A DNA stretch of 8,934 nucleotides from the IMG/VR virus record IMGVR_UViG_2700989168_000005; one strand, written 5' to 3'. Origin of the DNA: a virus (Duplodnaviria > Heunggongvirae > Uroviricota > Caudoviricetes). The notes under the pieces are model-generated. The model saw nothing but the letters and a program-made list of their open reading frames with translations, made no database searches and was not told the DNA's origin. The position numbers and the translations under genes are program-made. Shown here piece after piece: positions 3,243 through 8,597 of the stretch; positions within the stretch are counted from its first letter, which is position 1; each line of letters opens with the position of its first letter.

Positions 3243-3278
3243 ATTGTAAAAACCTCATATTGATGGTCAGCACTGACT

Positions 3279-4149
3279 TCATGGCATGGCCATGAGCATT
3301 TTCACGTCCGCATCACCGTCTGCTGACGTCTGTGGCACGCCACCCTGTACCGCTGCCGGTGAATGGTTCGCCATGAAATGTTCAAACATGGCGGTTGTGG
3401 ATGCAGAAANNNNNNNNNNNNNNNNNNNNNNNNNNNNNNNNNNNNNNNNNNNNNNNNNNNNNNNNNNNNNNNNNNNNNNNNNNNNNNNNNNNNNNNNNNN
3501 NNNNNNNNNNNNNNNNNNTCATCCCCGGACAGGCCGCCAGTTTTTCAGCCTGCGCCTCTGCCCCTTTTGCCTCATCCAGGGCCATAATCTGATCACGAAG
3601 TGAGGGTCCGGCATTCGCCTGCGGTGAAGCAGCCAGAATCGGACGGGCTTTTTCCACCGTCATCTCCGGCATCGCCGCCAGCGTTGCCGCCAGTTGTTCA
3701 CGTCCTTTCGCCTCTTCACATGCCATAATGCGATCGGCTTCACTCTGCGCAGATACACCAGATTGTTGCGGTGCCGCCACGGCCAGAATCGCCCGGGCCT
3801 GCTCAACGCTCATACCCTGTTGCCCTGCCAGCATCGTGGCCAGTTGTTCACGTCCTTTCGCTTCCTGACACGTCAGGATCCCCATCACTCGCTGGTTCTC
3901 CTGCGCGGCAGCCTCCGTTGCAGTTAATTGCGGCATAGTGCCTCCTGTATCGTGTGTGTTCAGCGTCGCAGCCATCACGCTGATGGCGTCCGACGCATTG
4001 ATTAATTCATCCGCCAGTTCGGCCTCAATACCGGACTGACCTTCAAAAACGGCGGCCTCTGTTCCCATAACCGCATCCACAGATAAACCGGTATACATCG
4101 CCACTTTTTCAGCAAACATCCGGCGCGCCGCATCAATGCGCTGCTGCAT
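3279..4149 (-). CDS. Nu3: scaffolding protein Nu3, putative in-frame nested product of C
   Basis: In lambda, Nu3 is translated from an internal in-frame start within C and shares its stop. A candidate internal ATG (Met231 of the C ORF, 4147-4149) lies at the equivalent position, with only a weak AAAGG upstream. Start site is inferred, not demonstrated. Confidence 0.3.
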
Positions 4150-4839
4150 GTCCTGGCGAACCTTTGCTGGCAGGGATTCAAACTGATTGCCATCCACCTT
4201 GTGCGATCCGGCGTAAATCAGCGTGATATCCACACCGGCCTGTGCCAGATGACCGGCATAGCTGACATGGCCCATCATCACCCCAATGGAGCCGATACGG
4301 GATGTCTGGGTAACCAGCCGTCGGGAGCAGGCCGATGCCAGTAACATGGCGGCTGAACAGGCCGTGTCATTGCACAGTGCCCAGACAGGCTTCAGCTGCC
4401 GGAGACGGTAAATCATGTCAGCGCAGTCAAACGCGCCGGTGGCCTGCCCGCCAGAACTGTCAATGTCCAGCAGTACGCCCCGTACCTGAGTGTCCGCCAT
4501 TGCCTGCTGAAGACAGGCGACAATGCCGTCATAGCCAGTCATTCCGGAAAATGGCCGCATGCCACCCAGCCGGTGTACCAGCGTGCCGGTCACCGGCAGT
4601 ACAGCAATACCGTTCACCACCCGGTAAACACGGGCAGGTCGTTTGCCTCCGGCCATGTACTCGTCCGTTTCAGCCAGCATCCCGGGAGCGTCAAGCTGTA
4701 CCTGCTGTTGCGGTACCGAAAGGCTTGCTGCGCCCATCTCACGCCCGAGCGCGCAAAAGAAAACCCGCGCATAGGCGGGCTCCAGAAGCAGCGGCTCATT
4801 GAATGCCGCAGCGATAATATGTGAAAGATTACGTCTCAC
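3279..4839 (-). CDS. C: capsid assembly protease / scaffold gpC (S49-family prohead protease), interrupted by an N-gap
   Basis: GTG start at 4839 with AGAGGAGA Shine-Dalgarno, overlapping the B 3' end. N-terminal and protease core are colinear with lambda gpC (AFNEPL-LEPAYARVFFCAL, NGIAVLPV-GTLV, SGMTGY-GI, KPVWAL-ND--CSA--LLASA-SRRLVTQT-R-GSIGVMM-H, ITLIY-GSHKVDGN, YTGLSV). The ORF track ends at 3382 because the N-run (3410-3518) is not frame-preserving. A lambda-like C-terminal tail (...HFMANHSPAAVQGGVPQTSADGDADVKMLMAMP*) is readable in another frame after the gap, with TGA at 3279-3281, so I place the true 3' end there. Confidence 0.8.
3410..3518. other. Run of 109 N (assembly gap or masked sequence) inside the C/Nu3 3' region
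   Basis: Directly visible. The gap abuts the tandem-repeat region and its length does not preserve the C reading frame. Confidence 1.
3519..3900 (-). repeat. Diverged tandem direct repeat (about 2.7 visible copies, period ~141-150 bp) encoding a repeated ~47-50 aa module in the C/Nu3 C-terminal scaffold region
   Basis: Protein copies: QRVMGILTCQEAKGREQLATMLAGQQGMSVEQARAILAVAAPQQ / DRIMACEEAKGREQLAATLAAMPEMTVEKARPILAASPQAN / DQIMALDEAKGAEAQAEKLAACPGM[gap]. At DNA level a 23-nt core GCCAGTTGTTCACGTCCTTTCGC is identical at 3689-3711 and 3839-3861 inside otherwise diverged copies. The third copy runs into the N-gap. Confidence 0.8.
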
Positions 4840-6422
4840 GTGATGTTGTCTCCTCTTCCGGCCTGCGACTCTCCGCTATCTGCTGCTGATACGCCTGGGC
4901 TATCCACACCGGACGTGAGAGTCCGGCTTTTTCGCGCTCTGCGGATTCCCTGACCTGCTGGCGGAAAATGTCCTGATAATCTTCGCCCATCAGTGCCAGT
5001 TCTTTCTCATACGTGCTCAGTCCGGCCTCAATGCGCATCACCGATTCCTGGACCTCCTTGAGCCCGTCAATGGCCATTCTTCCGGAGCTAATCCACTCTG
5101 CCCGTGACCAGGCTGAACGCGCCTGGTAAAAATCAAAACGCGCCCGTGGCGGACGAATAATCCCCCGAAGAAGCGCCTCTTCCAGCCAGCAGGAAAACAT
5201 CTGCGTGGCCAGCCGGGCCGCAATAAATTTTCGCCGCCCCATAAAATAGCGCCACGACTCATTGGCGGAGGCGCGGGCACTTGAGTAACTGACCTTCGAG
5301 TAATCACGGGACAACTGTTCGTAGGAAACGCCAAGACCGGCTGCAATATACCGCAGCAGCGCCTGTTCAAGCGCCGAAAATCCATTGTCTGAATCCTGCG
5401 CTGTCTGCAGGTTCAGCGCATCGCCAGGAAAAAAGGTGCGGAATTTTAACACCGCCCAGCGTCACGTTATTCGTGTCATACCAGCGGGTGAACTTCTCCA
5501 GAATATTAATAAGCGGATTATCCTGCTGACCTTGCGGTGCCCCCGCGATATATTCAAATGCCTTTTCGGTATCAAGTTCACTTTCGATTGTGGCTGCATA
5601 CATCGCCTTCACAATGGCCGACTGAAGCTGCGTGGCCTGCAGGGAGTCCAGCATCTTCATCCGCTCCATTACGCTGTAAAACTGATTAGCCCCACGGGTC
5701 TGCCCGTCCTCCACCGGCTCAAAAATATGCAGCATGGCCGGACGCCCGGTGGGAAGCTCACGCGGGATCCGCTCCCAGCGTCCGGCACCAGAGAACGGAA
5801 AATCATCCTCACAGATATGGTACGCAATCGCCCGCCCATACCGATCGACCTCAACCCCGGCCCGCAGAAAGTGGTTCCCCATACCGTGTCCTGGCGTGTC
5901 CACCCGTTTCGGACTCACGGCTTTAAAACGCGTACGGAATAACTGCGTGGTTTCCGTATCCCAGACCGGCTGCACAAAGATTTCGCCGTTAAAGGCATGC
6001 ACGCCCACCCCTTCACGGATAAATTCCGTAAACGTGCGTTTCCCTTCCACGTCGATCTCGCCAAACATTCCTTCTGCGTATTCCGACCAGGCTGCTTCCA
6101 CCTCCCCGACAAAACTTTTTGCCGTGGTCTCCCGCATCCCCAGCCAACGCCAGTTCAGACGGTAGCTGATAAGAAACATGTGCCCGACGATATGATCCTT
6201 ATGCAGGGCCACCGCATTAGCCGCGATACCGTTATTGCGCACCAGATCATCTGCCCGGGCATTCCCCAGACGCAATGCAGGCAACAGGGCCGCATCGGCA
6301 CTCTGCGCCGGTGGTAACCACTCTGCCATTTGCCCGCCAAATCCTGCGCCGCCTCCGTTGTAGCTGAGACTCTCACGAAGCGGAACGCCGTTCACATCAA
6401 TCAGGACAGGCGTTCGTTTCAT
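4829..6422 (-). CDS. B: portal protein gpB, reading frame interrupted by a 1-nt frameshift (extra A/T in homopolymer at 5429-5434)
   Basis: Two overlapping minus ORFs (5367-6422, 351 aa; 4829-5452, 207 aa) together span 1594 nt, about the size of lambda gpB (533 aa), and read as N- and C-terminal parts of one portal protein. Frames switch at coding-strand CTTTTTTCC; removing one T gives ...GVKIPHLF-PGDALNLQTAQDSDNG... continuously. Start ATG overlaps the W stop (ATGA). Confidence 0.85.
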
Positions 6423-6622: not shown

Positions 6623-8597
6623 TCACTCCTCCGGACAGCTTCGCTGCCAGTTCTTCAAGGGTCGGTTGTGCAGTTGCATCCTTGCGGGATNNNNNNNNNN
6701 NNNNNNNNNNNNNNNNNNNNNNNNNNNNNNNNNNNNNNNNNNNNNNNNNNNNNNNNNNNNNNNNNNNNNNNNNNNNNNNNNNNNNNNGCACGGACACACG
6801 TAATGCCGCATAGGCATACACCAGGCAGTCCAGCGCTTCGTTACGCCGCTTTTTGTTATCCCACAACAGACGCATCTTTCCTTTTTCCCACTTTTCCACC
6901 AGTTCCTCCGCCACCAGTTGTTGTGCCTCTGTCTGCGAAAAAATCTCCGGATTATCAGGAAAGCGGATGGCATACGATGTGGCCTCATTCACAGGGGTGG
7001 GATCGGCCTTCATTCGGGCATAGAGAATTTCTTTTGCGGTATCCGTCCCCACCTCACACAGATACACACCCCGCTGATTGCGGGTTTTCGGCATGGTGAT
7101 CACCGGCTTGCCATAGACAGAGGCACCTTTTACCGGCAGTACCCGGAAAATACCGTGTTTTTTTGACCTCTGATACACGATTTCGCCATCGATCCCCCCG
7201 ATATCCCAGCAGACACGGGAAATGGTCATTTCGGTACCGTCTGCATGGCGGTATTTTTTATTGATCGCCGCATCCACACGTAACAGCGTCTCTTCCTCAT
7301 CAGGACGTCCCATGATGATGATTTTATCCACCAGAAAGGCTTCCTCTCCCGGAGCCCACCCCCAGACATACATCTCAAAACGGTTTCGCTGCGAGTCAAT
7401 GCCCGCCGTCAGATAAACCACCCGGACAGGCACCGTTGCCGTGTAAGGCACAACCTTATCCATCAGTACCTGGTGATCGAGTTTTTCGCCCACGGCCTCT
7501 TCCCAGGTCTCGCCCAGCGTGGTGTTCACAAAAGTTTTCACGCCGTTGGGATCTTTCAGTGCATCCAGCCAGTCACAGACTATCTGTACCCTGGTGGTGA
7601 ACGGACTGTACGCCGTCCATATATGGAAAGTGATGGAGCGCGGCGGCGGAATTTCATTACCCGAAGCACTGAAAAACGTCAGACCGTCACACGTCCACAT
7701 CCCGGTATTGTCACAAATCCAGCGCCCCCCGGTCTGATCAAGTTCAGACTGACGGATCACGCAGCCATTATGTTCACACAGGTAATACACCGTTTCCGGT
7801 TTACCCTTCTCCCATTTCAGGCCAAACGACGTCGCATCATCGCCAAACTTCAGATACTGCTCCTCCCCGCAATGAGGGCAAGGGACATAAAACCGCATGA
7901 AATGCGCAGATTCATTCGCAGCTTTTTCAATCTGACAGGAGCCTTTAATTTTTGGCGTTGAACCGCGTATGGATTTTGGCCATACCGAACCTTCAATACG
8001 TTTATCGCCAAGCAGTGTTGGCGAACCTTCTTTTTCCACATCCGGTTCAAACGAGGAGAGTTCGTCATAGCAGACCACATCGACAGATTTTTCACGGTAG
8101 TTTTTGGCAGCAGCACCACCCAAACACCAGAACCCCACACCAGAGGAAAAACGCTTCAGTGTGAGCGTATTATCCCGGTGTTTCCGGCCCAGCCAGGGAG
8201 AAAGTTTTTTCAGGCAAGGAACATCACGAATTGTTGCTTCCACGTGAGACTTCATAAAATCTTCAGCAGCTGAGTCCGTCGGCTGAAAAAGAAGAGTGTT
8301 GCGGGATTTGTGCTCAATAAAATACCCGATCACACCAAGCACCATTTTTGTATAACCAACACGGGCAGATTTAATCAGGTTAACTGTACGAATCTCGTCA
8401 TTGCCCATGCAGTTCATGATGGCGACCTGAAACTGCAGCGTTTTCCATTCCCCCTCACCGTATGACGATTCTTTAGGCAGGTAATAATTTTGATCGGCCC
8501 ATTCTACAGCCGTCACCGGCAATACCCTGACCAGTGGCTGCAGTGCGATAGTGACTGCCACCATCATATTACTCAGTTGTTGTTCTGATATATTCAT
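6606..8597 (-). CDS. A: terminase large subunit gpA (contains an N-gap near the 3' end)
   Basis: Strong colinear similarity to lambda gpA across the ORF (MNIS..., TAVEWAD-NYYLPKES, KSARVGY-KM-LGV, FIEHK-RNTL, NTLT-KRF--G-GFWCLGG-AAKNYREKSVDV, EGSPT-LGDKRIEGSVWPKSIRGSTPK, C-IE-AA-ES-HFMRF-V-CPHCGEEQYLKFGD, YLCEHN-CVIRQ, HIWTAYSPFTT, KTFVNTTLGETWE, YLTAGIDSQ, WGW-PGEE, IIMGR-D-E-TLLRVD-AINK, SKKHG-FRV-P-KGASVYGKPV, EQVEKW, LWD-KKRRNEALDC-VYA-AALR). ORF track starts at 8654, but homology begins at the ATG at 8597 (MNIS), which gives a ~29-nt overlap with the Nu1 3' end as in lambda. The N-run 6691-6787 lies near the C-terminus; the lambda-like tail resumes in frame after it. Confidence 0.95.
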   Translation of the reverse strand: MNISEQQLSNMMVAVTIALQPLVRVLPVTAVEWADQNYYLPKESSYGEGEWKTLQFQVAIMNCMGNDEIRTVNLIKSARVGYTKMVLGVIGYFIEHKSRNTLLFQPTDSAAEDFMKSHVEATIRDVPCLKKLSPWLGRKHRDNTLTLKRFSSGVGFWCLGGAAAKNYREKSVDVVCYDELSSFEPDVEKEGSPTLLGDKRIEGSVWPKSIRGSTPKIKGSCQIEKAANESAHFMRFYVPCPHCGEEQYLKFGDDATSFGLKWEKGKPETVYYLCEHNGCVIRQSELDQTGGRWICDNTGMWTCDGLTFFSASGNEIPPPRSITFHIWTAYSPFTTRVQIVCDWLDALKDPNGVKTFVNTTLGETWEEAVGEKLDHQVLMDKVVPYTATVPVRVVYLTAGIDSQRNRFEMYVWGWAPGEEAFLVDKIIIMGRPDEEETLLRVDAAINKKYRHADGTEMTISRVCWDIGGIDGEIVYQRSKKHGIFRVLPVKGASVYGKPVITMPKTRNQRGVYLCEVGTDTAKEILYARMKADPTPVNEATSYAIRFPDNPEIFSQTEAQQLVAEELVEKWEKGKMRLLWDNKKRRNEALDCLVYAYAALRVSVXXXXXXXXXXXXXXXXXXXXXXXXXXXXXXXXXSRKDATAQPTLEELAAKLSGGVNGYSR
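6691..6787. other. Run of 97 N (assembly gap or masked sequence) inside the 3' end of terminase large subunit gene A
   Basis: Directly visible. Confidence 1.

Follow-up and report, generated by a model that had tools for sequence, protein, structure and literature searches.

Three questions are raised by the head gene region analysed here: whether a short module repeated in tandem at the C-terminal end of a phage protease/scaffold gene is anything out of the ordinary, whether the run of N that cuts into the repeats conceals further copies, and why 23 nucleotides should be identical in two copies that have otherwise diverged. The window, by which we mean the whole stretch of 8,934 nucleotides, had received an initial annotation that drew attention to all three. 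Taken as a whole, the reading that we consider very probable is that of an E. coli-type lambdoid prophage whose gp5/gp6 gene is of the phage 21 type, with three modules equivalent to the Tri boxes of phage 21, a gap standing for 54 nt, a core homogenised by conversion, and modules that would act as interaction units.

Gene content and genomic setting

The window consists of a block of lambdoid head genes on the minus strand, collinear with that of phage 21 at about 90% nucleotide identity:

6422-4829, minus strand: lambda-family portal gene (Phage_portal_2, Pfam), upstream of the C/gp5 gene
3279-4839, minus strand: C/gp5-type gene, S49 prohead protease fused to a scaffold domain (translation and phage 21 identity)
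3941-3946, minus strand: putative ribosome-binding site AGGAGG for the internal scaffold start (from the sequence; an equivalent site is annotated in phage 21)
3279-3936, minus strand: nested Nu3/gp6-type scaffold ORF (in-frame internal ATG at 3936-3934; 200 aa after gap closure)
3242-2895, minus strand: D-type decoration protein gene (HDPD, Pfam), downstream of the C/gp5 gene
2837-1809, minus strand: E-type major capsid protein gene (Phage_cap_E, Pfam), downstream of the C/gp5 gene

The C/gp5-type gene, about 93% identical to phage 21 gene 5 at the nucleotide level, extends from a GTG at 4839 to a TGA at 3281-3279, with the N run breaking it. It matches Peptidase_S49 strongly (Pfam E=1.3e-33, 116.6 bits against a cut-off of 24.9; residues 147-292, window 3937-4839, minus strand), and this domain, along with the portal gene upstream and the decoration and major capsid protein genes downstream, bears out the C/Nu3-type assignment made initially. 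The internal scaffold start falls at the position of the annotated gene 6 start in phage 21 (M81255, OL657228), which is also that of nu3 in lambda. An in-frame internal start with its own ribosome-binding site predicts a separate scaffold protein having its C-terminus in common with the protease, and the triplicated region occupies the C-terminal third of the S49 gene, that is, the part common to both.

A single additional T at 5434-5439 (minus strand), where the window has six T in a row and phage 21 five, breaks the portal gene into separate ORFs, 5367-6422 and 4829-5452; this is either a homopolymer sequencing error or the mark of a truly defective prophage. Some short part of the window is also found at 99% identity or more in 86 records of Stx2a-converting phages, and the matching segment lies outside the scaffold region, as a protein search with that region gave no Stx2a phages.

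Three diverged modules in tandem

Translation of the minus strand between 3900 and 3519 gives three successive modules of about 45 residues, the third of which runs into the gap:

3745-3900, minus strand: module 1 (ENQRVMGILTCQEAKGREQLATMLAGQQGMSVEQARAILAVAAPQ plus linker), with the Tri1 box equivalent at about 3869-3766 (translation)
3604-3744, minus strand: module 2 (SEADRIMACEEAKGREQLAATLAAMPEMTVEKARPILAASPQ plus linker), with the Tri box equivalent at about 3729-3619 (translation)
3519-3603, minus strand: module 3 (SLRDQIMALDEAKGAEAQAEKLAACPGM...), first 28 codons only, with the Tri3 box equivalent from 3588 (translation)
3410-3518, no strand: assembly gap of 109 N, length inexact, standing for 54 nt in identical relatives
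3279-3409, minus strand: C-terminal tail after the modules (SASTTAMFEHFMANHSPAAVQGGVPQTSADGDADVKMLMAMP, then stop; translation), conserved in phage 21

The remainder of module 3 falls within the N run. Successive cores are 150 nt apart for copies 1 and 2 and 141 nt apart for copies 2 and 3, copy 1 having three additional codons (VMG). The array put forward in the initial annotation is confirmed by this translation and by pairwise BLASTP comparisons, in which copies 1 and 2 are 63% identical (E=2e-14), copies 2 and 3 62% (E=4e-13) and copies 1 and 3 53% (E=1e-9), with 65%, 60% and 49% nucleotide identity, respectively. Tandem Repeats Finder did not detect the array in this region because the copies are too diverged (49-65% nucleotide identity).

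Could the repeats be an artefact, produced by reads collapsed or duplicated around a gap in a draft genome? The window is indeed a draft with two N runs, one of them inside module 3, and many E. coli genomes carry multiple related prophages (up to five matching places per genome) of a kind that mislead assemblers. Copies sharing no more than 49-65% of their nucleotides are nevertheless not what a duplicated assembly would give, as had been argued at the outset, and the same arrangement occurs in complete genomes as well as in independently sequenced phages, phage 21 (M81255) included. The finished genomes and the divergence between copies refute an artefact, which we regard as practically out of the question.

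Copy 3 stands apart in one respect. In the E. coli phage 21 lineage (window 3603-3519 and relatives) its otherwise nearly invariant GRE.LA motif is gone (EAKGAEAQA), while Gifsy-1 and other three-module lineages retain it (EAKGREELA). This suggests that the constraint on the third module has been relaxed or altered.

What the gap stands for

The non-N part of 3243-3960 is matched at 100% identity by three complete E. coli chromosomes. In L003, one of these (E. coli O121, NZ_CP119441.1), the flanks of the gap lie 54 nt apart, as they do in the two other 100% identical genomes, and the 54-nt fill encodes (T)VENARAVLAAASGRAEP(V), the end of module 3. So filled, the gene measures 1506 nt, stays in frame and specifies a protein of 501 aa, in which three modules and no more are followed by a 39-residue tail. 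The 109-N run, on the other hand, breaks the reading frame; the 501-codon frame holds only with a 54-nt gap, as in the genomes with identical flanks. The sequence comparison thus makes it most likely that nothing but the last 54 nt of module 3 lies in the gap.

The suggestion that more copies are hidden in the gap, which would require a recent further expansion in the lineage of the window adding at least one module, does draw some support from the occurrence of four-module (551 aa) and larger (657 aa) variants in E. coli and from the N run exceeding the 54 nt of the relatives (109 as against 54). It fails on the three chromosomes, which are 100% identical on both flanks and have exactly 54 nt there, and on arithmetic, one more module adding 141-150 nt, which is incompatible with 109, at which length the frame is broken in any case. 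The lengths of the N runs are, moreover, best seen as estimates, since the second run (6691-6787, 97 N), which falls in the gene for the large terminase subunit, likewise exceeds its homologous sequence: the 125 nt of window 6663-6787 correspond to about 62 nt in phage 21. Hidden modules are therefore very improbable, and the N run, which most likely stands for the end of module 3, should not be taken for hidden biology.

The L003 prophage (NZ_CP119441.1 2616121-2627783), while 100% identical to the window over the Nu3 region, is degraded, with an IS1 insertion in its FII-type head-tail joining gene and a truncated portal gene. Outside the Nu3 region it is just 93-98% identical to the window, a pattern of identity that, to judge from the sequences, indicates a mosaic prophage.

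Prior annotation, spread and age of the Tri boxes

The triplication is already known. In M81255, the 1990s GenBank entry for the head operon of phage 21, gene 6 bears three repeat_region features named 'Tri1 box', 'Tri box' and 'Tri3 box', with the note 'function unknown; putative'. Translated, these features give exactly the three modules, and in the window they fall at 3869-3766, at 3729-3619 and from 3588 onwards. No text on the Tri boxes or their function was found in the open-access literature.

The triplication is also frequent among E. coli prophages. Phage 21 gp5/gp6 and PhiR12_2* both have these three modules in a protein of 501 aa, and at least 1,813 of the 5,426 complete E. coli genomes have a match over all non-N bases of 3243-3960, a count from which a deletion of 57 nt is already enough to exclude a locus, by placing it under the coverage cut-off. 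Counting modules per phage across the C proteins, as the initial annotation had proposed, we found the full three-module scaffold in 20 phage records (including phage 21, 4A7, 1W, 3W, D2, ev017, PhiR5/12/57/63 and Gifsy-1) and a single module in about 103, among them lambda, 434, N15, phi80 and HK225. Lambda gpC does have the motif only once, as stated initially, but the three-copy arrangement is not unusual: since phage 21, Gifsy-1 and many prophages share it, with the Tri boxes annotated in M81255, it amounts to ordinary family variation. The gene is an ordinary phage 21-type C/Nu3 homologue and has small value as a discovery. What the present analysis adds is the closure of the gap by homology, the recognition of the core as a probable lineage-specific conversion patch, a series of two- to four-module alleles with their junctions, and a three-helix prediction for the module.

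How old the triplication is can be read from signatures that are specific to each position in the array (QENQRVMGIL.C in copy 1, S.ADRI in copy 2 and SL.D.IMAL in copy 3). They are common to Gifsy-1, at a nucleotide distance of 39%, and to P0121, P0122 and P0123, which belong to other clusters at 50% identity. Since each copy keeps its own signature, the triplication must predate the phage 21, Gifsy-1 and P0121-P0123 lineages. The signatures thus show the triplication to be old and the copies, as judged by their sequences, to be orthologous by position, including in relatives less than 50% identical.

Origin of the 23-nt core

The two identical cores, which encode AKGREQLA, are as follows:

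3839-3861, minus strand: core, copy 1 (GCGAAAGGACGTGAACAACTGGC on the coding strand; exact match)
3689-3711, minus strand: core, copy 2 (exact match to the copy 1 core)

The identity claimed for these two stretches holds, and no exact run longer than 23 nt is shared by copies 1 and 2. Were the mismatches between the two copies evenly spread, a run of this length would have P=0.0066 in the 94-nt repeat and P=0.0003 in the 126-nt module. Relatives (phage 21, PhiR12_2*, the three E. coli prophages L005-L007 and the P0056/P0005 loci L009 and L011) have a different pattern, with copy 1 reading GCG AAA GGA CGT GAA CA(G/C) CTT GC and copy 2 reading GC(G/T) AA(A/C) GGT CGT GAA CAA CTG GC. The copy-specific codons (GGA..CAG/CAC CTT as opposed to GGT..CAA CTG) are kept in L001, L002, L005-L007, L009 and L011, and also, its own conversion apart, in L010, making eight relatives in total. 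In the relatives for which the two readings are given above, the copies differ at 3-4 synonymous sites of the core and share no identical stretch longer than 8-11 nt. The window and L003 alone read GCG AAA GGA CGT GAA CAA CTG GC in both copies.

Polarity is provided by a neighbour-joining tree of the flanking sequence without modules 1-2, in which L009 and L010 fall outside the window clade and its sister clade. As these two are outgroups, the copy-specific codons are ancestral and the identity of the cores is derived on the branch of the window. (Gifsy-1 was rejected as an outgroup for this purpose, being too diverged, and L009 and L010 were used.) All of the core changes are directed to the state of the paralogue, the rough chance of three such directed substitutions being about 4e-6. 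We infer from this pattern that the cores were made identical in the lineage of the window by gene conversion over a short tract, or by patchy repair of a heteroduplex, acting between copies 1 and 2: copy 1 would have taken the CAA CTG of copy 2, and copy 2 the GGA of copy 1. L010 is a second, independent case of concerted change: both of its copies read CGC at a codon that is CGT in all others, and its copy 2 has the copy-1-like GGA and CAG.

Two other accounts of the core have to be weighed. One is that the identity is ancestral, or a coincidence under purifying selection or codon bias, which is not unreasonable on its face: in the protein no part of the module is better conserved than EAKGREQLA, so that non-synonymous changes are excluded and agreement is needed at just 3-4 synonymous sites. 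The copy-specific codons shared by L009, L010 and the sister clade make the identity derived, though, and neither the direction of all changes toward the paralogue (rough chance 4e-6) nor the independent change to CGC in both copies of L010 fits well with retention or coincidence, leaving this account improbable. The other, raised initially alongside gene conversion, is that a function of the nucleic acid itself keeps the core identical, be it a CII-dependent antisense promoter, a site bound by protein or an element acting in RNA. OL657228 does carry a 'CII binding site' (TTGYN6TTGY), called by pattern, that overlaps the copy 2 core, and the same pattern matches the window at 3684-3697. Copy 1 does not have it, however, and the pattern occurs 2 times as against 1.82 expected by chance, a count at chance level for which an antisense CII-dependent promoter was rejected. 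An Rfam search gave no match, nor were promoter- or terminator-like sites found in the repeats. It is the relatives that refute nucleic-acid constraint, as they differ between copies at 3-4 synonymous positions inside the 23 nt and have identical runs of just 8-11 nt; we hold such a function to be exceedingly improbable. Of the two explanations offered initially for the core, gene conversion is thus favoured by the polarity and the directed changes, and nucleic-acid constraint falls away.

The two pattern matches in question, at 3684-3697 and 3918-3931 (plus strand), are antisense to the scaffold gene, and OL657228 annotates 'transcription factor CII' sites there.

Gain and loss of modules

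Survey of the 120 closest protein clusters revealed the following length variants:

551 aa: 4 modules, 2 clusters
501 aa and near-full-length (460-500 aa): 3 modules, 16 clusters
482 aa: 3 HMM matches, the second truncated (about 2.5 modules), 66 clusters
451/452 aa: 2 modules, 25 clusters

The junctions lie at different points of the repeat. In P0085 copy 1 is joined to copy 2 exactly inside EAKGREQLA, and the corresponding two-module locus (L012), whose flanks are 1% from phage 21, has the hybrid core GCG AAA GGA CGT GAA CAA CTG. As this hybrid core is the chimeric 23-mer of the window, the crossover in L012 took place inside CGTGAACA. The junction is at VE.AR in P0102 and at APQ in P0114; P0030 (more than 1,000 contigs) has lost 19 residues between two LAA repeats, P0002 has 50 residues duplicated between PEMTVE and PGMTVE, and P0016 is a further variant with a junction in the array. 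These alleles show the array to be a hot spot for in-frame gain and loss of modules, with about 2-4 of them among E. coli prophages, and the L012 junction shows that the 23-nt core also serves as a crossover point for in-frame module loss. Assemblers and annotators will face real in-frame length variants, from 451 to 551 aa, at this array.

Longer products are found as well. In the E. coli S49 clusters P0084 (721 aa) and P0087 (577 aa) the frame enters unrelated sequence after module 3 (...AAGSG), the extension resembling a tail fibre (His/Gly repeats); these appear to be chimeric ORFs that arose where the array ends, through recombination or deletion. The singleton P0001 (657 aa, E. coli) has a 156-residue duplication comprising the end of the protease domain and modules 1-2, with six module matches, one of them truncated, and could be either a real large duplication or an assembly artefact.

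What the module is and what it may do

A profile of the window modules retrieved 490 clusters (50% identity) among 1.84 billion representative proteins. Among the best 150 of these 490, the module occurs once in 133, twice in 11 and three times in 6, and in full-length proteins it ends about 50 residues before the C-terminus. No Pfam family covers the module, none being matched at E<=0.001 on window 3519-3936 (minus strand), and PHROGs places it in head maturation protease and scaffold families. By these comparisons the module is a widespread putative domain that lies outside Pfam and is usually present in single copy.

AlphaFold2 modelled a single module, from 59 diverse sequences, with a pLDDT of 89.8 as three short helices with a conserved EAKGRE turn. 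No significant neighbour came out of fold searches with this model and no relative out of a PDB sequence search, so no function can be assigned by fold. The full-length 501-aa protein gave an unusable model (pLDDT 39), in line with the intrinsic disorder reported for lambda gpNu3 in a title cited in PMC9295703. A helix-hairpin-helix (PF00633/PF14520) was considered and rejected, phage 21 gp6 scoring 15.2 bits against a cut-off of 24. Among the 59 modules HHH_5 matches five (best E=0.014) and HHH one (E=0.0017), all below threshold; with matches in just 5-6 of 59 modules under the curated thresholds, comparison with HHH, HHH_5 and RuvA yielded no evidence for DNA binding.

C-terminal helical or helix-turn-helix motifs bind the coat protein in the scaffolds of P22, phi29, SPP1 and 80alpha (PMC11565965). 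Two-hybrid assays detect contacts of lambda Nu3 with E, with C and with itself (PMC3224144), and the Nu3-E contact lends indirect support to binding of the major capsid protein. By analogy, we infer the module to be an interaction unit in the common C-terminal region of protease and scaffold. Each copy would, according to the structural model, form an autonomous domain of about 42 residues with three predicted short helices and the EAKGRE turn; the modules would probably contact the major capsid protein, self-associate, or both, bringing protease and scaffold into the procapsid, and three of them would make a phage 21-type scaffold multivalent as compared to lambda, with its single module. The more specific proposal, that the Tri module is an autonomous mini-domain for capsid-protein binding or self-association and that its copy number sets the valency of scaffold and protease, is a possible but rather doubtful extension of the same analogy. 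If it were true, the natural alleles with 1, 2, about 2.5, 3 and 4 modules products of recombination within the array, would constitute a natural experiment on the effect of scaffold valency on procapsid nucleation, fidelity or size; the copy-number series can be used for studies of scaffold valency. As for the idea that expansion of the repeats could alter capsid size, the genome records of viable three-module phages, at 43-54 kb in the size class of lambda, speak weakly against such an effect.

Comparison with known systems

As is the case for the module, the helix-turn-helix of P22 (along with the phi29, SPP1 and 80alpha motifs) is a small helical motif near the scaffold C-terminus with conserved charged turn residues (PMC11565965), a likeness that we propose as a functional analogy. 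The P22 scaffold has a single helix-turn-helix, with no detectable sequence or fold relationship to the Tri module, and membership of the module in the P22-type coat-binding class was rejected for want of similarity in sequence or fold to the solved motif.

Much closer is lambda gpC/Nu3 (NC_001416, 4418-5737 and 5132-5737), likewise an S49 protease with an in-frame nested scaffold gene, in the same gene order (B-C/Nu3-D-E) and with the same module (AENSRIMGILNCEEAHGREEQARVLAETPGMTVKTARRILAAAPQ) followed by a short tail. Lambda has one module, however, a long Ala/Thr/Gln-rich spacer replacing modules 2 and 3, and its gpC is 439 aa long as against 501 aa for the phage 21-type gene. The gpC homologue of the Salmonella phage Gifsy-1 (STM2605, 498 aa) has three modules with the same position-specific signatures, while differing from the window by about 39% at the nucleotide level and in copy 3 (EAKGREELA, as opposed to EAKGAEAQA in the E. 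coli lineage).

The closest of the known systems is phage 21 gp5/gp6 (M81255, OL657228), head-tail preconnector/protease and scaffold, in which the gene, the nested start and the positions of the modules are as in the window, with total lengths (501/200 aa) and flanking genes equal to those of the window. The two differ by about 6-8% of their nucleotides, and in the core, where phage 21 has 4 differences between copies 1 and 2, including a change of K to N in copy 2, and the cores of the window are identical.
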